Origin: Candidatus Moraniibacteriota bacterium
Lineage (GTDB): Bacteria; Patescibacteriota; Minisyncoccia; Moranbacterales; UBA2206
Direction: 5' to 3'
Length of the DNA: 64,000 nt
Assembly: GCA_049297495.1 (NCBI GenBank)
Contig: JBAQUL010000010.1
Span: 12,881 to 76,880 of the forward strand
A model generated the notes under the pieces. It was not told where the DNA came from and made no database searches. It saw nothing but the letters and a program-made list of their open reading frames with translations. Shown one piece after another: positions 3,620 through 64,000 of this stretch. Position 1 is the first letter of the stretch; each line of letters opens with the position of its first letter. The position numbers and the translations under genes were made by a program.

Positions 3620-3695
3620 CTGCACCTTTCCTTTCTTGGAGTTAAAGAACGTTGATAAAATAAAAAATGCCTAGAAATTAGACAGCTTATTTTTG

Positions 3696-3778
3696 TGGGC
3701 GAGGAGGGACTCGAACCCTCATGGAGCAAGCTCCGCAACATTTTAAGTGTTGAGTGTATACCATTCCACCACTCGCCC
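3696..3778 (-). tRNA. tRNA-Leu(TAA)
   Basis: Cloverleaf folded by hand: acceptor GGGCGAG/CTCGCCC, anticodon loop CTTAAAA, long variable arm, T-loop GGTTCGAGTCC. Confidence 0.75.
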
Positions 3779-3782
3779 AAAA

Positions 3783-4253
3783 TTATTTTTTTCGATTTCT
3801 CCCTCTGTGTGTTGGCTTTAGACTATGACAATTAGGACAAAGTACTCGCAAATTTTCTAGTCGATTGTCCTTACTATCACCATTAATATGATCGAGTTCT
3901 AATGGTAACCGCCCATCATTCGATATTTTATGCCACCCGCACTCTTCGCAATGCTTTGGCTTTAAACCAGCAACAAATAATCTTTTCTTCAACTTGAAGC
4001 TTTGAAAATTACTATCCTTTTTTAGAATTTCTTCTAACTCCTGACGTGGTTTTCCAATTCCACTCATTCCCTTATTCCAACCCTTTCCTGTGAAATGCTT
4101 TGTATTGATTTTGTAAAGCTCTAAAAACTTTTTTATTTGAGAATAGTTTCCTCCTGCTTCCTTCAGCTTCAATCTTTTTAAAACCTGCCTAACGCTTGTG
4201 GACAATTCAACTGCTTTTTTCAGTTCATTTTCTGTCCAACTTCTTTTTCTCAT
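3783..4253 (-). CDS. HNH endonuclease (free-standing, homing-endonuclease-like)
   Basis: C-terminal HNH motif LELDHINGDSKDNRLENLRVLCPNCH, with CEECG upstream. Sits between tRNA-Leu and tRNA-Cys. Confidence 0.7.
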   Translation of the reverse strand: MRKRSWTENELKKAVELSTSVRQVLKRLKLKEAGGNYSQIKKFLELYKINTKHFTGKGWNKGMSGIGKPRQELEEILKKDSNFQSFKLKKRLFVAGLKPKHCEECGWHKISNDGRLPLELDHINGDSKDNRLENLRVLCPNCHSLKPTHRGRNRKK

Positions 4254-4319
4254 AGTGGTATACTAATTTATTTATATCACCCCAAAAGTATACCATATTA
4301 ATCGTTTTTAACAAAACTG

Positions 4320-4390
4320 AGGTCCGGAGCAGATTCGCACTGCTGTACAGGGTTTTGCAGACCCTTGCCTAACTGCTCGGCCACCGGACC
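4320..4390 (-). tRNA. tRNA-Cys(GCA)
   Basis: Hand-folded: acceptor GGTCCGG/CCGGACC, anticodon loop CTGCAAA, T-arm AGCAG-TGCGAAT-CTGCT, discriminator U. Confidence 0.65.
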
Positions 4391-15723: not shown

Positions 15724-16470
15724 ATGGACACAACAATCCTAAAAAAAATTGGCCTCAATGATAAAGAAGTCAAAATATATTTAAAACTACTCGAGTATGG
15801 AGCAATCTCCGTTCGCGGACTGGCAGAGATCTCCGAACTAAACCGCGGGACAACCTATGATGTCCTAAAGCGTTTGCAAGAAATTGGTCTTGTTAGCTAT
15901 TATTATCAAGAAAAAAAACAGCGCTTCGTCGCAGAAGAACCTGAAAAATTATTGGAAATCCTCAAAAACAGAGAGCTTGAAATTAAAAACGTTAAAAGTG
16001 GTATCCTAGATATTATTCCAGAGCTAAAATCAATCCAGGATAAAAAAGATCTAAGGCCAGTTTCCAAATTATATGATAACCGCGCAGGGATAAAAACAAT
16101 CCTGAATGATTTGCTTTCTTCGATGCATTCCCTACCAGAAGATGAAAGAGAATACCATATATATTCCTCTACCGAAGCAAGCGCAGATATTCACAAGGCC
16201 TATCCAACATTCACGAAAGAAAGAGTTAAGAGAAAAATTCGCGTGAAATCGATCTCCCTAGCTGAAGGGGGCAACTTGCATGGGCTAGATGACCGCCGCT
16301 GGCTAGGTACTAACAAAAATTCTGCAACGTTTATTTTGATTTACGCCGGGAAATGCGCTTTTATTTCTCGCGATTCGGAAGGCAATCCTGTAGGCGTGCT
16401 AATTGAAAATCAAATGATTTATGAAACTCAAAAGATGATTTTTCAAAAGCTTTGGGAATATTTGAAATAA
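15724..16470 (+). CDS. TrmB-family HTH transcriptional regulator (paralog 2 of 3)
   Basis: N-terminal winged-HTH (LGLNDKEVKIYLKLLEYGAISVRGLAEISELNRGTTYDVLKRLQEIGLV), about 250 aa. Confidence 0.7.
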   Translation: MDTTILKKIGLNDKEVKIYLKLLEYGAISVRGLAEISELNRGTTYDVLKRLQEIGLVSYYYQEKKQRFVAEEPEKLLEILKNRELEIKNVKSGILDIIPELKSIQDKKDLRPVSKLYDNRAGIKTILNDLLSSMHSLPEDEREYHIYSSTEASADIHKAYPTFTKERVKRKIRVKSISLAEGGNLHGLDDRRWLGTNKNSATFILIYAGKCAFISRDSEGNPVGVLIENQMIYETQKMIFQKLWEYLK

Positions 16471-18292: not shown

Positions 18293-18473
18293 ATATCCTC
18301 CTCGCCCCTCGGGAGAGCCTGCCTGCCGGTAGGCAGGGATGTCCGAAGGACAGGTGAGAGGAAGGGTAATATTAATTAGTATAAGCGTTATATCATAGGG
18401 AATAAAAAAATTTCAAAAGCCCTTTCCCTCATCCGGCCTTCGGCCACCTTTTCCCGGAGGGCGAAGGGGATAT
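18293..18473. mobile_element. MITE-like composite palindromic element, copy 1 (CCCCTCGGGAGAGCCTGCCTGCCGGTAGGCAGGGATGTCCGAAGGACAGGTGAG ... CCTCATCCGGCCTTCGGCCACC...CCGGAGGGCGAAGGGG)
   Basis: About 180 bp intergenic element whose two arms are imperfect inverted repeats. Two further full copies lie at 27617-27800 and 36531-36690. Confidence 0.55.
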
Positions 18474-18484
18474 AAATAAAAATT

Positions 18485-27532: not shown

Positions 27533-27616
27533 AAAAAAATTAAATTAATATTCTTACTATAAAATATACACTCAATATTAAACAATAAAACAATCTATTT
27601 GTCAAATTGTCCACAA

Positions 27617-27800
27617 CATCCCCTTCGCCCCTCGAGAGAAGCCTGCCTGCCGGTAGGCAGGGTGGTCGAAGGCCGGATGAGGGCAAGGGCTTTTGATAAA
27701 ATTATTACTATCCCACACAGAACATTTTCATATTTTGATATCACCCTTGCCCTCACCTGTCACGTGCTCGTGACATCCTCTCCCGAAGGGAGAAGAGGGT
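27617..27800. mobile_element. MITE-like composite palindromic element, copy 2 (overlaps the 3' end of the 27728-29776 ORF)
   Basis: CCCCTCGAGAGAAGCCTGCCTGCCGGTAGGCAGGGTGGTCGAAGGCCGGATGAGGGCAAGGG ... CCCTTGCCCTCACCTGTCACGTGCTCGTGACATCCTCTCCCGAAGGGAGAAGAGGG; same modules as copies 1 and 3. Confidence 0.55.
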
Positions 27801-29776
27801 TTTAAGTCAAATTGTTCCACGTGGAACAATTTCCACAAAAATACAATAAACAAAACCAAGCCAACAATCCCCCATTCTGACCAAATTAAAAGAAAAATAT
27901 TATGCACCGGCTGATATTGCCAGATTGCGAGATCAGGAAATAGCCGTTCCGCCTCAAAAATAAACTGTCCGGTTCCAGCCCCAATGATCGGACTCTCCGA
28001 AATGATCCGCTGCGAGATTGAAAGATATAAACCTCTTTCTTCCAGCGATTTCATAAATAAAGCGTAAAATTCAACTCTAAGGAAAAGCAGGCCTATCAAC
28101 ACGGCAAAACCCAAACCTAATAATATTCTAAATTGTTCCACGCTTGCCCGCCGAAGCCTTGGCGCAGGAGGGTGGAACAATTTTTTAATCGTTTCTCTTG
28201 AAATTGTTCCACGCTTGCCCGCCGAAGCCTTGGCGCAGGAGGGTGGAACATTTATGTACACAAGTGCAATGGTTAAAGCTAAAATGGCTGATTTAGAAAA
28301 AGAAAGGAATACCCCAATAACTTGAATCACTAGAGCAAATTTAATTAAATCCAAACCAAATGTTCCACGTGGAACATTTACCCGCATAACACTCTTGAAA
28401 TTGTTCCACGTGGAACAATTTTCGATAGGATCCGCCTGACTAGCTCCAGCCTTAAATTGTTCCACGTGGAACAATTTAATATACAACATTGTCATAATAA
28501 TGGAAAAAAACAAAAATCCACCCAAAAGATTGGGGTGCGGAAATAGGCCATAGGCCCGTATCAATGGATGATAATTAGCGATAATCTTTGCCACTCCGGC
28601 AATATCCGGCCCTATCAAGCTTTCTTTGAGCCAAAATAAGCCGATGGAGTGCTGAAGGATAAATTGAGCAATTCCGATCAAGGCCTGCGTGATTCCTGTG
28701 ATCATGATAATGCCAAAAAATACAATTGCCGCATTAATTGTTCCACGCTTGCCTGCCAGAGCCTTGGCGGAGGTTGGTGGAACAATTTGATAAAAATCTT
28801 TACTGGAAATGTTCCACGTGGAACATTTCCTGAAATCACTACTCCAAAAACCGATACCCACCAAAATGCCACAAACCAGCCAAAATAAAACCTGGCCCTG
28901 CCAGATATCCCATAAATAGTGGTCAAAAAGAGCAATTACTATCAAGCCCAATAAGATTGCACGGAAATATTGAGCCATTTTTGATAAAACACAGTTAAAA
29001 TGTTCCACGCCTGCCTGTCCGGTAGACAGGTGGAACATTTTTTCATTATTAGATCCAGACTCATCCGAAAATGTTCCACGTGGAACATTTTCGACATTTT
29101 CAGATCGCAAATTGTTCCACGTGGAACAATTGAGTATGCAGTATGGCACAAACCTGATAACGATATAGATACATAGAAAATACAGTTCCAAAAACCTAAC
29201 AGATCTATAAATACTAATTGCCTGATTTTCTGACCAATAAACTGATATAAACGACCAGACAATCAGAAGAAGGGGCAATAGGAAAATACCAACTGAGCAA
29301 AAATTGTTCCACCAACCTCCGCTAAGGCTTCGGCAGGCAGGCGTGGAACAAATTGCATTGTATTGTTCGTTGAAATGTTCCACGTGGAACATTTTCCGCA
29401 TTTTGATTAAACAAGGCTTAATATAAGCAAATAATCCTGTGGATAAGTTCTGATTAGGAGCGTTATTCACACTTTCTGGATAATCTATCTTGTGGATAAC
29501 TTCAGAAATATCCTCTCTGCTACTTGACGCTTTAGCTATTTTATCGTATAGTATAGATATAATCCAAACTAGGATCACAAGACATAGAAATATATCGGAA
29601 GCATAAACATATGCGCCGGTGTATTCATTAAAAGCACCTTTCAAAGGAAAGTAAAACATTACTTTTCTAACTCCAAGCGTAAAAGTCAATAAAAACAAAT
29701 AGAAAAGCCAAATGTCTTTTGGTTGTTTTTTGGCTTCTTTCCAGATATTCCCTATCTTTTCAGTTAAATTTGCCAT
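27728..29776 (-). CDS. O-antigen ligase/polymerase-like polytopic membrane protein, interrupted in frame by numerous palindromic repeat insertions in its inter-helix loops
   Basis: A 682-aa open frame with ATG start. Many TM helices and a C-terminal IIGAGTGQF motif typical of O-antigen-ligase-like proteins. Repeated peptide modules MFHVEHF / NVPRGTF / CSTWNN are all translations of one DNA palindrome. Confidence 0.5.
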   Translation of the reverse strand: MANLTEKIGNIWKEAKKQPKDIWLFYLFLLTFTLGVRKVMFYFPLKGAFNEYTGAYVYASDIFLCLVILVWIISILYDKIAKASSSREDISEVIHKIDYPESVNNAPNQNLSTGLFAYIKPCLIKMRKMFHVEHFNEQYNAICSTPACRSLSGGWWNNFCSVGIFLLPLLLIVWSFISVYWSENQAISIYRSVRFLELYFLCIYIVIRFVPYCILNCSTWNNLRSENVENVPRGTFSDESGSNNEKMFHLSTGQAGVEHFNCVLSKMAQYFRAILLGLIVIALFDHYLWDIWQGQVLFWLVCGILVGIGFWSSDFRKCSTWNISSKDFYQIVPPTSAKALAGKRGTINAAIVFFGIIMITGITQALIGIAQFILQHSIGLFWLKESLIGPDIAGVAKIIANYHPLIRAYGLFPHPNLLGGFLFFSIIMTMLYIKLFHVEQFKAGASQADPIENCSTWNNFKSVMRVNVPRGTFGLDLIKFALVIQVIGVFLSFSKSAILALTIALVYINVPPSCAKASAGKRGTISRETIKKLFHPPAPRLRRASVEQFRILLGLGFAVLIGLLFLRVEFYALFMKSLEERGLYLSISQRIISESPIIGAGTGQFIFEAERLFPDLAIWQYQPVHNIFLLIWSEWGIVGLVLFIVFLWKLFHVEQFDLKPSSPFGRGCHEHVTGEGKGDIKI
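27809..29404. repeat. Swarm of about 13 perfect CACGTG-centred palindromes (AAATGTTCCACGTGGAACATTT / AATTGTTCCACGTGGAACAATT), including long variants whose centre is expanded by GCTTGCCCGCCGAAGCCTTGGCGCAGGAGGGTG or GCCTGCCTGTCCGGTAGACAGGTG
   Basis: Copies at about 27809, 28131-28192, 28201-28254, 28358, 28398, 28453, 28735-28796, 28806, 28998-29041, 29068, 29109, 29301-29353, 29383. Irregular spacing; long variants occur in both orientations. Confidence 0.85.
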
Positions 29777-30297: not shown

Positions 30298-30370
30298 GGA
30301 GCAAATCCGTCCTAAGGATGAGATGTAGGTTCCCTGCCTGCCGGCAGGCAGGGATTCCTACTGAGGGCAC
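30298..30370 (+). repeat. Tandem partial copy of tRNA-Arg (D-stem 3' half through acceptor 3' end) in which the T-loop is replaced by the palindrome CCCTGCCTGCCGGCAGGCAGGGA
   Basis: GAGCAAATCCGTCCTAAGGATGAGATGTAGGTTC-[CCTGCCTGCCGGCAGGCAGGG]-ATTCCTACTGAGGGCAC versus the intact tRNA immediately upstream. Confidence 0.6.
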
Positions 30371-36530: not shown

Positions 36531-36690
36531 AATATCCTCCTCTCCCCTCGGGAGAGGATGTCCGAAGGACAGGTGAGGGCAAGGGCTATAAAATCAAAGA
36601 TAGTCCGAATAAATTAATTCTGGCTTAATTTAACACTCTTACCCTCATCCGGCCTACGGCCACCTTCTCCCGAGGGGAGAAGGGAAAATA
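36531..36690. mobile_element. MITE-like composite palindromic element, copy 3
   Basis: ATATCCTCCTCTCCCCTCGGGAGAGGATGTCCGAAGGACAGGTGAGGGCAAGGG ... CCCTCATCCGGCCTACGGCCACCTTCTCCCGAGGGGAGAAGGG; arms are inverted repeats; located immediately upstream of a tRNA pair. Confidence 0.55.
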
Positions 36691-38560: not shown

Positions 38561-39337
38561 ATGCCAAATATGGACAATAAGTTATACAAAGTGCTGCTTA
38601 ATTTGGGACTTAGCGATAATGAAGCGCTGGTCTATTTGAGCGCGCTTTCTTTGGGCAAAACCACAATCCTGGCCATTTCCAAGGCCTCGGAAGTTAAAAG
38701 AACCACTGTTTATTCAGCAGTCGAATCATTGAAGCAATTGGGACTGATGAAGGTCGAGCAGATCGGCTGGAAAACCTTTTTTTCTGCGGAAAATCCGGAA
38801 AAACTGGAAAGGATAATGGATAATAAGAAAAAGGAACTTCAAGAATCGCTAGTTGATTTCAAGGCGCTCTACAGCGCTGACGGAGGGAGCAGTCTAATTA
38901 AATACTATGAAGGCGTGGAAGCGGTGAAAAATATCCATCTAGATCTGCTGGATGAGGTGAAATTCGGAGAGGATTATTGGGTGATTAGCGATTCCGCTAA
39001 ATGGATGTCGGAAGACCAAAGATTTTTTGAAAACTTCGTGGAAAAACGGGCGCAAAAAAAGCTCAATAACCGCCTTTTGCTCCAAGATTCAGAAATTGCC
39101 CGAAAATATAAACAAAACGAAGCAATATATAATTTGCAGATAAAGATTTTTCCACAAGATATGCAGCTCTCGGCTTCCATCACAATTACGCCAAATAAAA
39201 TCCTCATCCACCAAACCACCCCGCCAGTTATTGCAATGGTAATTGAAAACAAAAACATTATCCGCTTGCACAGGGAACTTTTTGAGTTTATGTGGAAAAC
39301 AATCGCGGTAGATCAAGAACTTACGCATTTGAATTAA
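38561..39337 (+). CDS. TrmB-family HTH transcriptional regulator (paralog 3 of 3)
   Basis: N-terminal winged-HTH (LGLSDNEALVYLSALSLGKTTILAISKASEVKRTTVYSAVESLKQLGLM), about 258 aa. Confidence 0.7.
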   Translation: MPNMDNKLYKVLLNLGLSDNEALVYLSALSLGKTTILAISKASEVKRTTVYSAVESLKQLGLMKVEQIGWKTFFSAENPEKLERIMDNKKKELQESLVDFKALYSADGGSSLIKYYEGVEAVKNIHLDLLDEVKFGEDYWVISDSAKWMSEDQRFFENFVEKRAQKKLNNRLLLQDSEIARKYKQNEAIYNLQIKIFPQDMQLSASITITPNKILIHQTTPPVIAMVIENKNIIRLHRELFEFMWKTIAVDQELTHLN

Positions 39338-58326: not shown

Positions 58327-59382
58327 ATGAGTCTCCGTGTCCTTAGGAACTATATCAAAAAAATGCAAGAAAACTCCAAAAAACAAAAAAACTATTTTTC
58401 AAAAAAAATCACGGCTTTCTGGCTTTCTTTTGCGCTGTTTTTTCTTGCACTTTCCGCTCCACAAAAAGCCTGTGCCTGGGACGCCATTCCCGGGGCAATC
58501 TTTAAACAAGCCACGGAAGAAATCTCCTATGCTATTAAAGGCATGATGATGGGAGCACTGAAACAAGCGGCAATTAAAATGCTTTCCAAACAAATGGATC
58601 GCTTCATTTCAGGAGTTTCCGGAAACGGCGCAAAATTTATCACTAATTGGGAAGACTATTTGATTGACAATCCGACAAGAAACGCCCAACGCTATGCCAA
58701 TGACTATGTCAGTCGCGCTCTTTCTGGCAAAGGCAGCGTCAGCTATAAAAAATCCAGCAATTCTGTTTTAGGCGCCAGTACAATTGCCGGAGAAGGCTTT
58801 GGGAAAGAGGCGGTACTCGGCGATGCAGCTGAAAGCATAAACTATGCCGAATCAATCCAAACCATGGCCCAAAATGAAATTCTTGAACCAAAAGAATGGC
58901 AATTAAGCTATCCTGATGATCCAGCGAATATGTTTGAAAGTGACACGCTTGCCAATATGAACCTCTACATTAATGGAGATGGTAATGGCGGAAATACAAT
59001 CTGGGACGCCAAATCAGCGATTGCCAAAGAATATCAAACAAAACTGGACAATGAAAAAAGCCAAGCCTATGCCGAAGGCGTCTCCGGTCAAGGATTTTTG
59101 GGTGAAAAAATTGATGGAATGGTGGCAAAGCCAGGTATACTCTTCAAGGAAATGGAGGCTAACACAGAAAACTTGCCAAACCTCGCCATTTCTAACGCGA
59201 CGAGTATTGGAGAGTTGGTCGCCGCCACTGTTTCGAAAGCAATAACAGGAGTTATCAATAAAACTGTTAGCGGAGTGGAAAAAGCTATCAATAAAGAAGT
59301 CAGCAAAGTCACAGATAAGGCTGTCAAAGAAGTCAATAAAGAAGTCAACTCCTATGGACCAGGAGCGTTATATAAAAAATGA
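58327..59382 (+). CDS. Secreted hypothetical protein (351 aa)
   Basis: N-terminal hydrophobic segment ITAFWLSFALFFLALSAPQKACA (signal peptide). Stop overlaps the next gene's start (ATGA). Confidence 0.45.
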   Translation: MSLRVLRNYIKKMQENSKKQKNYFSKKITAFWLSFALFFLALSAPQKACAWDAIPGAIFKQATEEISYAIKGMMMGALKQAAIKMLSKQMDRFISGVSGNGAKFITNWEDYLIDNPTRNAQRYANDYVSRALSGKGSVSYKKSSNSVLGASTIAGEGFGKEAVLGDAAESINYAESIQTMAQNEILEPKEWQLSYPDDPANMFESDTLANMNLYINGDGNGGNTIWDAKSAIAKEYQTKLDNEKSQAYAEGVSGQGFLGEKIDGMVAKPGILFKEMEANTENLPNLAISNATSIGELVAATVSKAITGVINKTVSGVEKAINKEVSKVTDKAVKEVNKEVNSYGPGALYKK

Positions 59383-61613
59383 TTATGTTGTTTTTCTCAA
59401 AATTGAAACAAAAAATATCAAAAACAATATTCACGAGATCACGAAAAAGTTATCTGGCTATTTTTGGCCTGTCTCTTTTTTTCGTTTTCTTCTATTCACA
59501 CAATGCCCAAGCTGGTCCTGTTGACTGGGCGGTTGGAGCAATGGTCGAGACACTACTAAAGGCAGTCCTTCAGTTTTGCGCGATGCTCCTCTCTATGGCA
59601 GAAACTATTTTCAAATGGATTGTGAACGCAGACAATATGAAAGCAATTATGGACAACGAGGTTGTCTATTCGACATGGCGCACCGTTCGAGACTTCTTCA
59701 ATATTGCTTTCATCATGGTGCTTCTTTTCTCCGCCTTTGCAACCATTTTTCAGGCTCCAACCAACTTTAATTACAAAAAAATTCTGCTTAACCTAGTGAT
59801 CATGGCGCTTTTGGTCAATTTCAGCTATCCAATAGCACGCTTCATTGTTGACGCATCAAACATGATGATGTTTGGCATCCTCAAAAATCTCGACGGTTCA
59901 AATTCATTCATGGAAATTATTCAAAAAAGTAAACTCGCCGACATATTTACATCTGGCAAAGACAGTACTGATTTACTCTATTTGCTTTCAGCAATTATTT
60001 TTACGTTCATTTACGCCGTCACACTACTCGTGATTGCAGTTCTTTTGACAATCAGAACAATCGCCATCACCATCTATATCATCTTTTCACCAATCGCTTT
60101 CATCGGACCGATTGTTCCAGGCACAGCCGTTGCCTCCGCTGGCAATGATTGGTGGAAGGAATTTATGAAATATTGTTTCTCTGGTCCAACAATGATTTTC
60201 ATGCTTTTTATTGCGACCAGAATGATGGTTGCCGTGACAGATTCACAAATTAAAATGGGTGAGATAGCGATGACACAGGTCCGAGGCGACACCAGCAGTA
60301 ATGCTGTCGGGAACTTAATCACAAGTGCTTCTAAGTTTTCTCTACCAATTATTATTCTTTGGATTGGCATTATTCAAGCCCAAAAATCCGGTATCGCTGG
60401 CGCTGGGGCTGTTGTTGGAATGGGAACAAAAGCACTAAATAAAGCAGGGAAGTGGGCAGCAGGAGCACCAACTGGAGCTGCTTGGTGGGCAGCTAAAAAG
60501 ACTGGGGTGCCTGGCGGAGTGCAGCAGAAATGGGCTAACTGGAAAAAAGGTGGCATTTTGGGATCTGACAGACAAGCAGAGCGAGAGGCGAGAGTCGCTG
60601 GAGCTCTTGGCGTACCGAGAGTTACAGATCAGATGTATATGAAAAAACTCAAAGAAGCTGGAGAGAGTCATGATATGCCAAATATGGGCGTTAACGCGCT
60701 ACGCGAACTATCAAGAGGTGGTGATAGATATGAAAGTGCAGCTGCAATCCAAGAACTCATGAATCAAAATGCATTCGACATGAATAACGGGGATGACGCA
60801 GCTGCATATCAAAGAATGCAACAAGAATTTGGAACAACTAGTCAAGTATTTAGTCAGATCAATAACAAGCTCAAAGCATTTGACCCCGTTTCTGCCTTTG
60901 CACACATAACAGACGCACTTGAAAGACAAGCCAGAACGGTAGAATTTATGAATAGCAACAAATTCAAAGCAGAAAATTTAGGAGCGAGATCTCTCGGTAA
61001 TTCTAATTTTATGGAAACAGCTTTCAAGGAAGGAGCAATAACTAATGATGATCTTGAAAAATTAAGAAAAAAGAGCCCAACACATGAAAGAAACATACTA
61101 TCCTCACTAAGAACCGCCGCAAATAATTTTGGTGACCCTGGACAACTTCAGAGCAACATAGATGGATTAAGAGAACTTCCGCAATCAGATGAAAGGGACG
61201 CGCAAATAACACTACTTGATAACGACCTACGAAGAGCCAGAAGTATCCACACGGCCCACCTTGCTCAAACTGGAACATTCCATACCTCTCTTTCTGACGA
61301 TGCCAGCCTCAGTGATGCAGAAAGAAACATGAGAGCAGACTCAAGAACGCATATCATCTCAAGATTAAATGAAGATACAGCAAAAAGAACAAGAATTGAT
61401 ACAGGAACGCCAGGGGGAGATGAAAACCTAAGAACAGAATTTGCACAAAATTTGAATTCAAACAAATTCAAAGCGATTATGACAAAAATGGACAACGATA
61501 GCGTTGTGGCAGGTATCCTCGATACCGCACGAAAGGTTGGCGGACCTCCGGGTTCGGCAGGCGCAAGAAACGCACAAAAAGCAATCGAAGATGTCGATTT
61601 AAAGCAAAGGTAA
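59379..61613 (+). CDS. VirB6/TrbL-like polytopic membrane protein of a type IV secretion / conjugation-like system, with a long hydrophilic C-terminal domain
   Basis: Signal peptide, then at least 6 TM helices (about residues 40-320), then a roughly 400-aa hydrophilic tail. Architecture and position just upstream of a VirB3/VirB4-like pair fit VirB6/TrbL. Not motif-proven. Confidence 0.4.
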   Translation: MIMLFFSKLKQKISKTIFTRSRKSYLAIFGLSLFFVFFYSHNAQAGPVDWAVGAMVETLLKAVLQFCAMLLSMAETIFKWIVNADNMKAIMDNEVVYSTWRTVRDFFNIAFIMVLLFSAFATIFQAPTNFNYKKILLNLVIMALLVNFSYPIARFIVDASNMMMFGILKNLDGSNSFMEIIQKSKLADIFTSGKDSTDLLYLLSAIIFTFIYAVTLLVIAVLLTIRTIAITIYIIFSPIAFIGPIVPGTAVASAGNDWWKEFMKYCFSGPTMIFMLFIATRMMVAVTDSQIKMGEIAMTQVRGDTSSNAVGNLITSASKFSLPIIILWIGIIQAQKSGIAGAGAVVGMGTKALNKAGKWAAGAPTGAAWWAAKKTGVPGGVQQKWANWKKGGILGSDRQAEREARVAGALGVPRVTDQMYMKKLKEAGESHDMPNMGVNALRELSRGGDRYESAAAIQELMNQNAFDMNNGDDAAAYQRMQQEFGTTSQVFSQINNKLKAFDPVSAFAHITDALERQARTVEFMNSNKFKAENLGARSLGNSNFMETAFKEGAITNDDLEKLRKKSPTHERNILSSLRTAANNFGDPGQLQSNIDGLRELPQSDERDAQITLLDNDLRRARSIHTAHLAQTGTFHTSLSDDASLSDAERNMRADSRTHIISRLNEDTAKRTRIDTGTPGGDENLRTEFAQNLNSNKFKAIMTKMDNDSVVAGILDTARKVGGPPGSAGARNAQKAIEDVDLKQR

Positions 61614-61626
61614 GTCAAAATTTAGC

Positions 61627-62802
61627 ATGAACAATTATTTAGAAAAAAGAGATAAGCTTCCCAACCTCCTGAAGGAATTTCTCATGTCCGATACTCCGAG
61701 ATATGAAGTAGAGAGGGTTTGTTTTATGTATGCACTAAAAGAACAGGAAATACGCATTATTTCCCATCCAATTGCCCTCATATTTATTGGTGAATTAAAA
61801 TTAGCTGACTATCCAACACTAATTTTCAAGGAGTTGAATCAATCAGAGCAAATCATCTATGGCATTTCATTTGAAATTAACCAAAGAATCTTTGCTCGCT
61901 TTCCAGATTTCTTCAAAGACTCGCAAGACCTACTGGAAGAATGGTTTAGAAAAAAAGCCAACCCGCTTATAAGCGAAGATGCTGCTTGGCAAAAAGTTCT
62001 GGAACGAGAACCGGAGATCCAAGAAAGGGAGCGAGAGAGGGAAGCAGAAAGAAAAGAGGAAATGAAAAAAATGGAAATATACAAGGCTCAATTGGAAAAC
62101 CTGCCAATCGACGCTGCCTTGGAAAAATATCCTGAATTGGGAGAGCAACTGATTACATCCAATCATATCAAGCTGAAAATGTTTCCTGAGCCAGTCCGAC
62201 CATCAATTAAAAACTGGCTTTCTGATTACACCTTCACCATTGGCATTAGTAACCATGACCCAATCATACGTGGCGACTATCTGTTTAAGGGTGACAATGC
62301 GGCGTCTCTCTCCACTCAAGATCGCGAGAAGCTAACCGATATCATCAAATCATTTGAAGAAAAAACCCCCCTCACGATCAATACCAAAACGAAGCAAGTA
62401 GTCTTTATTGCTCCCGAAAGAAAAGAAACGCCACGAGCCCCAATGAGATCAGCCGTTAACCCAAATATTGCTCGTAGAGATTTGGAGCCAACCGAAATCA
62501 GAAGGGGACAAGAAAACTATCCGCAAAGAGAAATCTTGCCTCAAACACAAAAAAGATTCCAATCAGACGAAGAAAGAATCAGTGCTTGGAGAAAGGATTT
62601 GCCAGAAAAAAGAGTGCAAGCCGATGAAAGCCGGAATGAAAATATCCGATTTTCTTCCCCTCAAACATTCTCCACCGAAAAACCACCAGAAACTCCTCGC
62701 CCAGCCACGCCCAACTACCAAGCCCAAAAACCAGTTGCCAGAATTAATTATGCCACGCCAAGACCAATGCCAAGAAATGTGGTAAACTTGAGAGAGGAAT
62801 AA
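61627..62802 (+). CDS. Hypothetical protein with Glu/Arg-rich coiled segment and Pro-rich C-terminus
   Basis: Clean ORF with ATG start; EREPEIQEREREREAERKEEMKK; C-terminal PPETPRPATPNYQAQKP. Confidence 0.4.
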   Translation: MNNYLEKRDKLPNLLKEFLMSDTPRYEVERVCFMYALKEQEIRIISHPIALIFIGELKLADYPTLIFKELNQSEQIIYGISFEINQRIFARFPDFFKDSQDLLEEWFRKKANPLISEDAAWQKVLEREPEIQEREREREAERKEEMKKMEIYKAQLENLPIDAALEKYPELGEQLITSNHIKLKMFPEPVRPSIKNWLSDYTFTIGISNHDPIIRGDYLFKGDNAASLSTQDREKLTDIIKSFEEKTPLTINTKTKQVVFIAPERKETPRAPMRSAVNPNIARRDLEPTEIRRGQENYPQREILPQTQKRFQSDEERISAWRKDLPEKRVQADESRNENIRFSSPQTFSTEKPPETPRPATPNYQAQKPVARINYATPRPMPRNVVNLREE

Positions 62803-62901
62803 CCTCATGCAGCATGCAGCATGAAACATATAACAAAAAACTAGCGAATATGCTATCTCTTGTTGTCTGCTTCATGTTTCATGCTTCATGTTTCATGCTT
62901 C

Positions 62902-63300
62902 ATGATATTCAACGTCCCACAATTTATTGATATTGAAGACAAGATTGTCGGTCCACTCACCGCCAAGCAACTCGGCTGGATTGCAGCCGGTGCGGTCCTT
63001 GCATTGCTTAGTTATGCAATGTTCGACAAATCAACCTTCATCGTTTCTGCCCTTATTCTCGCAGTAATTTTTGGAGCGCTTGCCTTTTATCGTCCCTATA
63101 ACCAACCCCTCATTAAGTTTATCCTATCCTCAATCGCATTTATTATCCGCCCAAAAATGTATATTTGGAGACGAACGCCAGAAAAAGTTCAAAGAACCGT
63201 CGCTAAGAAAGAAGACAATGCGCCAATAATCACCAGAAAGAAGTTCGATTCCCAGAAAGTCTCTGACATCTCAGCTCTTCTTGATCACCGAAGTCGCTAG
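62902..63300 (+). CDS. PrgI/VirB3-like small two-TM membrane protein
   Basis: MIFNVPQFIDIEDKIVGPLTAKQLGWIAAGAVLALLSY... resembles the conserved N-terminal block of PrgI-family proteins that sit immediately upstream of VirB4 ATPases. The ORF-track start at 62860 is TTG, inside a tandem repeat. Confidence 0.4.
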   Translation: MIFNVPQFIDIEDKIVGPLTAKQLGWIAAGAVLALLSYAMFDKSTFIVSALILAVIFGALAFYRPYNQPLIKFILSSIAFIIRPKMYIWRRTPEKVQRTVAKKEDNAPIITRKKFDSQKVSDISALLDHRSR

Positions 63301-63409
63301 ATTACAAATTACTAAAAACATACATAGAAGCAAACGAAACAATCAGCTCAAGCCAAATACACGCGCTACCCAACCAAAAAGCGGGTAAATCTGCGCTAAA
63401 AACAAAAAT

Positions 63410-64000
63410 ATGGAAAAACTTTATTCGCAAAAACTCACAAAACAAGCTGCCACATCGCCGACGCAACAATATCTGGATGTAGCAGAGGTAAAGGAAGATG
63501 TTATTGTCCTCAAAAATGGTTCAATGCGTGTTGTACTCGCCGTTTCAGCCATCAACTTCGATCTCAAGGCCACAGACGAACAAGAAGCAATCATCAGTCA
63601 GTATCAAAACTTCCTCAACTCAGTTGATTTCCCACTGCAAATCCTGATCAGCTCACGAAAATTAAATATCGACACCTATATTGAGTTCCTAACGACCAAA
63701 GAGAAGCAGCAAAAAACTGAACTGATGCGCTTGCAAATATCTGAATATAAAAACTTTATCACGCAACTTGTCTCCATGTCTGATATCATGGATAAGGCTT
63801 TTTATCTAATTGTACCGTTTTCTCCGATTGAAAATGAGGAAAAAAACTTTTTCAGTAATTTTTCCAATATGATTAACCCAAAAAGAGGTATTTTGGAAAA
63901 AAGAGAAACATTTGAGACATACAAAAGTCAACTTTATCAAAGAGTCGACCATCTGACTGCCGGTCTTTCTGGTATTGGCGTCAAACTCGTCCCACTAAAA
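63410..64000 (+). CDS. virB4: VirB4/TrbE/CagE-family conjugation ATPase, N-terminal 197 aa (gene continues past the right window edge)
   Basis: ATG at 63410. VIVLKNGSMRVVLAVSAINFDLKATDEQEAIISQYQNFLNSVDFPLQILISSRKLNIDTYIE matches the conserved VirB4 N-terminal block. The open frame reaches the window end. Confidence 0.6.
   Translation, partial: MEKLYSQKLTKQAATSPTQQYLDVAEVKEDVIVLKNGSMRVVLAVSAINFDLKATDEQEAIISQYQNFLNSVDFPLQILISSRKLNIDTYIEFLTTKEKQQKTELMRLQISEYKNFITQLVSMSDIMDKAFYLIVPFSPIENEEKNFFSNFSNMINPKRGILEKRETFETYKSQLYQRVDHLTAGLSGIGVKLVPLK

Follow-up and report, generated by a model that had tools for sequence, protein, structure and literature searches.

The 64,000-nt stretch analysed here (hereafter the window; contig JBAQUL010000010.1 of assembly GCA_049297495.1, Candidatus Moraniibacteriota bacterium) contains, on the minus strand at 27728-29776, a gene for a polytopic membrane protein of the Wzy_C (O-antigen-ligase-like) family, in which 13 palindromic elements lie within the open reading frame (ORF). 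Judged by their sequence, these palindromes are very probably chromosomal parS, the centromere sites recognized by ParB-type proteins. They would thus form a local parS cluster concentrated, in frame, in the loop regions of a single conserved Wzy_C-family gene, instead of being intergenic or distributed over many genes. Two kinds of selection would meet at this locus, one keeping the 16-mers perfect as DNA and the other keeping the membrane protein intact.

parS-like palindromes in a Wzy_C-family gene

The 16-mer TGTTCCACGTGGAACA occurs eight times in the window, in every case between 27813 and 29391, and was absent from 100 shuffles. The half-site TGTTCCAC is present in 28 copies, with 26 located within the Wzy_C-family gene, compared to the 1.2 expected. 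Pairing of the half-sites resulted in 13 elements, eight of them intact and five split at the centre by an insert of 30 nt (four elements) or 21 nt (one element), each placed precisely between CAC and GTG. The first-pass annotation of this DNA, made from the sequence alone, had reported about 13 perfect palindromes; the count of 13 stands, with only eight of them being uninterrupted and perfect. Phases 0, 1 and 2 of the reading frame are occupied by 4, 5 and 4 elements, which are translated as CSTWN(N/I), (M/L)FHVE(H/Q) and (N/I)VPRGT, respectively, in agreement with the MFHVEHF, NVPRGTF and CSTWNN types of peptide noted previously. Because the same DNA sequence read in three phases yields three different peptides, the repeats are nucleic-acid elements and not protein repeats, as had been proposed.

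All eight intact sites are exact matches. The leftmost of these, at 27813-27828, lies in the C-terminal last loop of the protein and is read in phase 1 (LFHVEQ). It is followed by a group of three at 28361-28376 (phase 2, NVPRGT), 28402-28417 (phase 0, CSTWNN; 41 bp from the preceding site) and 28458-28473 (phase 1, LFHVEQ), and by single sites at 28810-28825 (phase 0, CSTWNI) and 29376-29391 (phase 1, MFHVEH), between which a further pair, again 41 bp apart, is found at 29072-29087 (phase 2, NVPRGT) and 29113-29128 (phase 0, CSTWNN). The split elements, recognized by half-site pairing, are interspersed with the intact ones. Those at 28134-28179 and 28205-28250 contain identical 30-nt GC-rich inserts (28142-28171 and 28213-28242), the one at 28739-28784 is interrupted by a 30-nt GC-rich insert at 28747-28776, and the one at 29305-29350 carries such an insert in the opposite orientation (29313-29342). 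In the remaining split element, at 29001-29037, the insert is the 21-nt hairpin GCCTGCCTGTCCGGTAGACAG (29009-29029), which is also present in intergenic copies of an element resembling miniature inverted-repeat transposable elements (MITEs).

The eight exact copies of TGTTCCACGTGGAACA conform to the chromosomal parS consensus TGTTNCACGTGAAACA, for which the pattern TGTTYCACGTGRAACA is also given, and are identical to the sequence published as perfect parS for Pseudomonas aeruginosa and P. putida (PMC4368675, PMC7022226). Half-parS sequences, GTTCCAC or GTTTCAC, are bound by ParB as well (PMC4368675, PMC7022226). A scan for the 16-mer across bacteria and archaea, with one genome per species, yielded at least 120 loci, and those listed come from Bacteroidota, Acidobacteriota, Planctomycetota, Proteobacteria, Firmicutes, Myxococcota, Nitrospirota, Verrucomicrobiota and two lineages of the candidate phyla radiation (CPR). 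Many of the listed loci include 2-5 copies of the 16-mer per 8-kb stretch, and in 25 of the 120 a ParB-like ORF, with GERR and ENxQR motifs, is encoded within the same 8 kb; the two such ORFs that were run against Pfam both contained the ParB_N, HTH_ParB and ParB_C domains. The occurrence of the 16-mer in so many phyla therefore indicates a conserved protein-binding site. The suggestion that the palindromes constitute an array of binding sites for a CACGTG-recognizing regulator accordingly holds in the main: a binding-site array is what they resemble, with the protein, to go by the identity to parS, being ParB and not an E-box-type regulator. For Moranbacteria, the existence of ParB is assumed from the perfect conservation of its putative site.

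By domain content and membrane topology, the gene hosting the array is assigned to the Wzy_C/O-antigen-ligase family. Its 682-codon minus-strand frame, open as described in the first-pass annotation, encodes a product that matches Pfam Wzy_C (PF04932) with E = 3.7e-10 and 40.2 bits (cut-off 31.7) and that shares 100% identity with a protein deposited at NCBI for a metagenome-assembled genome (MAG) of Candidatus Moraniibacteriota; PF04932 is present in 118 of its 120 homologs. Ten hydrophobic segments are predicted in the protein, and all 13 elements map between them or at their edges. Placement of the repeats in loops is further supported by an AlphaFold model, in which the elements reside in, or at the edges of, non-helical stretches with a predicted local confidence (pLDDT) below 50 (residues 78-161, 208-255, 311-347, 441-472, 513-536 and 652-682), a model that is poor overall (mean pLDDT 53) and serves as support for loop placement only. 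Across the 120 homologs, each motif corresponds to ~10.6 residues of extra protein length.

Conservation of the sites and of the reading frame

Since the first homolog search was biased by its word matches, 80 orthologous loci were fetched from metagenomes with two peptide patterns that are independent of parS, YQPVHN[VI]F and YG[LF]FPHPN. Canonical parS, TGTT[CT]CACGTG[GA]AACA, is present in all 80 orthologs, with 1-17 sites per gene, and the sites are restricted to the C..G, T..G, C..A and T..A variants. Altogether, 594 parS are located in the genes of the 80 loci (151 kb, 3.9 per kb), versus a single one in 655 kb of flanking DNA. Three NCBI loci inspected individually contain 11, 8 and 3 sites, all of them within the gene. 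In one of these three, as well as in several metagenomic orthologs, the form TGTTTCACGTGAAACA is predominant or exclusive, which fits a consensus defined by ParB better than a single selfish repeat sequence. Hence, the in-gene array of parS sites is a lineage-wide feature and not an accident of one genome. Conversely, in two other CPR lineages parS sites are spread over various genes and spacers, so that the in-gene array is specific to the Moranbacteria clade.

In the twelve closest homologs (53-69% identity), the parS-encoded peptides occur at matching alignment positions and in matching phases. A consensus of 24 orthologs retains ~12 slots with fixed phase, in the midst of loop residues that are not conserved, and slots and phases are maintained in orthologs down to ~30% identity. 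The mismatch spectrum is dominated by perfect sites (581, 39, 10 and 9 sites with 0, 1, 2 and 3 mismatches, respectively), and conservation extends beyond the core to AAAW-core-WTTT. Given that the sites are nearly all perfect although synonymous divergence (dS) between the orthologs amounts to 0.6-0.9, they are under purifying selection as DNA. The host protein is under purifying selection as well: of 77 distinct orthologs, 76 have the match in a single ORF, and the ratio of nonsynonymous to synonymous divergence (dN/dS) is ~0.15-0.35, from which it follows that the reading frame is kept by selection, as was surmised from the sequence of the window. As for the genomic surroundings, 47 loci had sufficient flanking sequence, and in 39 of these gyrA is convergent and located within 3 kb downstream of the gene; the upstream neighbour differs between loci.

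Between intact neighbouring sites, the modal spacing is 41 bp (51 cases), followed by 40, 47, 50 and 59 bp. Neighbours at most 80 bp apart are rarely separated by a multiple of three (15 of 187), with no such bias for more distant ones. This phase pattern could be taken as a frame lock, whereby out-of-phase neighbours protect the array because a slippage deletion between sites would shift the frame of the protein. The idea is weakened by arrays and close pairs outside the host gene, in which a period of ~38-41 bp is likewise seen or deduced, and such a period by itself would make the phases cycle; a preferred spacing, together with common descent of the slots, may suffice to account for the phase bias. 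Close pairs of perfect parS, 25-54 bp apart, were found in many unrelated phyla (loci L017, L030, L033, L052, L058, L069, L078, L097 and L113), and Ruminococcus and related MAGs possess tandem parS arrays with a period of ~38 bp, as deduced from the peptide repeat. Two "hypothetical proteins" of 94-127 aa from the latter genomes (P0121 and P0122) are read-through of tandem parS, cycling through FHVEQ, CSTWNN and VPRGT. Thus, dense arrays of parS exist in other phyla and are mis-called as genes. A synthetic protein query composed of parS peptides, aimed at further gene families with arrays, gathered 54 candidates and yielded four small ORFs, a result that says little on the global distribution but brought the Ruminococcus arrays to light.

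Hairpin inserts, DnaA boxes and other features

Half-site matching in 78 distinct genes identified 589 intact and 119 split sites, the inserts being located exactly at the dyad centre, CAC|GTG. The common insert lengths are 21 nt (21 cases), 30 nt (15), 42 nt (13) and 54 nt (14), along with 36, 45, 84 and 126 nt, and 86 of the 105 inserts of up to 200 nt are multiples of three. Inserts are found in both orientations, and almost all have a hairpin next to a terminal GCYYGCC (at the start, or as the complement at the end); the units fold as stable hairpins, with z-scores of -4 to -6. At the tip of their hairpins, the 42- and 54-nt units bear an additional parS, and these units in turn receive inserts, as exemplified by locus L146 (9738-9863), where three 42-nt units are nested in one original site. 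At one slot, close orthologs have an intact site, a 21-nt insert or a 30-nt insert, and because close orthologs differ at a given slot, the inserts must be younger than the slots. Collectively, these patterns make the centre inserts appear mobile. Of the in-frame mobile insertion invoked in the first-pass annotation, this retains the nested GC-rich inserts, which show presence/absence differences between close orthologs and mostly have lengths divisible by three, but not the core palindromes. Nested insertion also fails to explain how slots multiplied, since each event costs one site for the one it supplies. No RAYT or IS200-type transposase was encountered among the window proteins run against Pfam, although no systematic search for one was made.

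The link between the nested hairpins and an intergenic MITE-like family, pointed out earlier, is borne out by a shared 21-nt GC-rich core: of the three copies of an intergenic GC-rich element of ~190 bp, two contain a 20-21-nt unit that recurs in the T-arm of a tRNA-Arg fragment (30333-30352). The family, with several short hairpins per copy, is represented at 18293-18474, 27616-27805 and 36532-36690, and in two of the three copies the extra 21-nt unit has the sequence GCCTGCCTGCCGGTAGGCAGG. The copy at 27616-27805 (~190 bp) lies beside the last parS and holds the last ~26 codons of the ORF together with its stop codon; the C-terminal tail of the Wzy_C protein is thus encoded by this element, and the tails differ in orthologs. 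The tRNA-Arg fragment (30299-30365) duplicates the 3' part of the neighbouring tRNA-Arg(CCT) gene and carries the 20-nt GC hairpin CCTGCCTGCCGGCAGGCAGG as an insert in its T-arm, between GGTTC and GATTCC.

Four DnaA-box-like 9-mers, all in frame, are further present in the part of the gene encoding the first loop (29438-29499; 62 bp). Two are perfect TTATCCACA and two have one mismatch, and the encoded peptides are NLSTG and VIHKI. Among orthologs, perfect DnaA boxes are present in 30 of 77 genes, are enriched 12-fold in the gene relative to the flanks and cluster at nucleotides 200-400 of the gene (39 of 49). These boxes may belong to oriC, titrate DnaA or serve in regulation. Proximity of the array to the replication origin would suit the boxes, the adjacent gyrA and the gene orientation, which diverges at ~23-30 kb of the window, genes to the left being predominantly on the minus strand and those to the right on the plus strand. 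Against it, neither GC skew nor per-gene third-position skew changes sign, so that no oriC can be placed in the window, and the idea of an array at the origin itself was dropped. With a G-rich leading strand, transcription of the genes at 30-64 kb would run head-on to replication.

Elsewhere in the window, a cluster resembling type IV secretion/conjugation genes lies at 59379-64000 and beyond the right end (L205, 11255-21176), with the order faint TrbL_3, PrgI, TraC-like and VirB4/TraC ATPase. Three paralogous TrmB-family transcriptional regulators of ~250 aa are encoded at 332-1093, 15724-16470 and 38561-39337, and a TrmB-like regulator, similar by eye, sits beside a parS cluster on a Kerfeldbacteria contig (L120, 1989-2765). 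Finally, an ORF for an HNH endonuclease of 156 aa (3783-4253) is located between tRNA-Leu (3695-3778) and tRNA-Cys (4319-4390).

Interpretation and comparison with known systems

In ParABS systems, ParB bound to parS closes as a clamp dependent on cytidine triphosphate and slides to neighbouring DNA, thereby building a partition complex on which ParA and/or SMC act. By this established mechanism, ParB dimers would load at the parS sites of the host gene. Loops of the protein can carry parS because the perfect C..G form is devoid of stop codons in any phase and on either strand, and each site would add roughly 10 residues to the protein. GC-rich hairpin units of 21-54 nt would insert at CAC|GTG and split sites, with mostly in-frame lengths being retained, and some units would bring a new parS and be hit again, giving rise to nested, "Russian-doll" structures.

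Several observations weigh against assigning the array to chromosome partitioning. Neither parB nor parA was detected in the window or the adjoining 20 kb, nor in ~0.8 Mb of DNA from orthologous loci. Specifically, Pfam runs on the 40 larger ORFs of the window and NCBIfam runs on the unannotated ones gave no ParB or ParA, and in 84 related loci ParB was found neither by a regular expression for its motifs nor by a hidden Markov model built from 27 ParB ORFs; the 10 kb added at each window edge contain no par genes and instead encode type IV secretion-like proteins and methyltransferases. At the five split sites, out of 13, normal binding of a ParB dimer is unlikely. Third-codon-position GC skew of the plus strand is negative on both sides of the host gene regardless of the coding strand (~-0.3 left of 27 kb and ~-0.2 right of 30 kb, with nearly every gene negative). 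Furthermore, the census of parS covers the window and the orthologous loci with their flanks, and the parS reading gives no reason for a Wzy_C gene being the host of the array. Literature searches on parS or ParB in CPR, Parcubacteria, Saccharibacteria or O-antigen ligase genes returned nothing relevant, and a Parcubacteria genome paper (PMC4508563) does not mention ParB.

These points notwithstanding, other accounts of the palindromes fare worse. The first-pass annotation drew a parallel with Rickettsia palindromic elements (RPEs), and the palindromes could indeed be selfish sequences inserted repeatedly and in frame into a tolerant gene, their likeness to parS being incidental or a form of mimicry. 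Tolerance of in-frame insertion is evident, since the ORF remains open through all 13 elements and most inserts are multiples of three, and the nested and split structures, the insertion polymorphism between orthologs, the conservation of a 20-24-bp extended palindrome (AAAW-core-WTTT) around the core and the existence of 42- and 54-nt units that both bear parS and insert into it all point in the same direction. The dispersal typical of RPEs and MITEs is what the cores lack: 26 of the 28 half-sites in the window are in one gene, and the orthologous loci have 594 sites in the gene against one in the flanks. Moreover, slots and phases persist to ~30% protein identity, the cores show nearly no mutational decay, their sequence is that of a protein-binding site that is shared by many phyla and can lie beside parB, and nested insertion replaces a site without adding one, so that for the core palindromes the RPE parallel does not hold and a selfish origin is very unlikely. 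The location of the sites inside a transcribed gene, together with the observation that ParB alters expression near parS in some species (PMC7022226), would also suit a role in transcription, with a CACGTG regulator, or ParB as a roadblock or silencer, acting on the gene body and tuning expression of an envelope enzyme. Yet eight to seventeen predicted high-affinity sites within a coding region match no known regulatory design, ParB bound to parS usually has little effect on nearby genes in the species reviewed (PMC7022226), the 16-mer is a generic centromere in other phyla and no regulator gene is linked to the array; we give transcriptional control little credence.

The least probable account, to the point of being barely tenable, is that the palindromes act as mRNA hairpins, as RNase sites or in pausing translation for membrane insertion, or as shufflon-like sites of DNA recombination. 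Although each unit folds stably and the sites separate transmembrane modules, the exact sequence is conserved with no compensatory variation, and Rfam returned no family at threshold, only sub-threshold miRNA-like hairpins. With regard to recombination, close relatives are collinear, with no inverted or permuted segments, the reverse strands of the segments are not open, and no recombinase is adjacent, the nearest integrase-family gene, XerC/D-like, being 10 kb away.

A more elaborate possibility, which we consider doubtful, is that the coding and centromere functions of the locus depend on each other. Residence of the array in a gene whose membrane-protein product is inserted co-translationally could anchor the ParB-parS complex at the membrane by transertion, and the reading frame could protect the array, considering how rarely close neighbours are a multiple of three nucleotides apart. 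The parS-bearing mini-hairpins would then be a selfish element that targets the centromere, breaking and renewing its sites in a bacterial analogue of centromere turnover, and with its in-frame DnaA boxes the gene would double as a hub of replication control.

If the palindromes are parS, as we consider highly probable, the array bears on the most widespread bacterial system of chromosome segregation, parS/ParB, in the CPR (Patescibacteria), which make up a large share of bacterial diversity and for which the literature searches gave no account of this system. It would illustrate to what extent very compact genomes can superimpose coding sequence and cis-acting chromosome sites, and would offer natural material for the study of ParB loading on dense arrays and half-sites. 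For annotation, the peptides FHVEH, VPRGT and CSTWN can be used to flag translated parS. Should the mini-hairpins be as mobile as they look, their insertion at the exact dyad centre of parS would make them a centromere-targeting type of element, of which we have found no description.

Although parS itself is well known, we found no description of the architecture suggested here, with a whole cluster in frame and the flanks empty, DnaA boxes in the same gene and hairpins homing to the site centre. Chromosomes of Myxococcus xanthus and Streptomyces coelicolor carry 22 and 21 parS sites, respectively (PMC7022226). The Moranbacteria array resembles chromosomal parS, such as the Spo0J sites of Bacillus subtilis and those of P. 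aeruginosa and P. putida, in the identical 16-bp palindrome, the multiple clustered copies and the GTTCCAC half-sites, as well as in the alternative canonical form TGTTTCACGTGAAACA of some orthologs and in the adjacency of the 16-mer to parB in other phyla. It differs in density, with up to 17 sites in less than 2 kb, whereas well-studied chromosomal clusters are spread over tens of kilobases, and also in that all sites lie in frame in the loops of one membrane-protein gene with essentially empty flanks and that parAB was not found near the array in the ~0.8 Mb of orthologous loci.

RPEs are 100-150 bp long, are dispersed in many unrelated genes and in intergenic DNA, and decay over time. Shared with them are the translation of palindromic DNA within a protein, its tolerance in surface loops and identity at the DNA level; the parS cores, in contrast, measure 16-24 bp, occupy fixed positions in one gene and are identical to a known protein-binding site. 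The centre inserts are closer to the small dispersed repeats of cyanobacteria, which, as Elhai et al. (2008, cited in PMC3116915) reportedly described, are very small and nested, and to repetitive extragenic palindromic (REP) elements, which, like the related REPINs, are mobilized by RAYT transposases. They have in common with these repeats GC-rich hairpins (20-54 nt here) with a conserved unpaired end, GCYYGCC, nesting and presence/absence polymorphism, and several have GTAG just 5' of the hairpin, as in REPs; they differ in that the target is the parS dyad centre and that some units carry their own parS. The sopC centromere of plasmid F comprises 12 repeats of 43 bp in tandem, each including an inverted repeat of 16 bp. 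The array is similar to plasmid arrays of this type and to the tandem parS of Ruminococcus in being a compact block with a spacing of ~40 bp (41 bp here and ~38 bp in Ruminococcus). However, sopC and the Ruminococcus arrays are non-coding tandem repeats, even if the latter are annotated as small hypothetical ORFs, whereas the Moranbacteria sites are interleaved with the conserved transmembrane segments of a functional protein.

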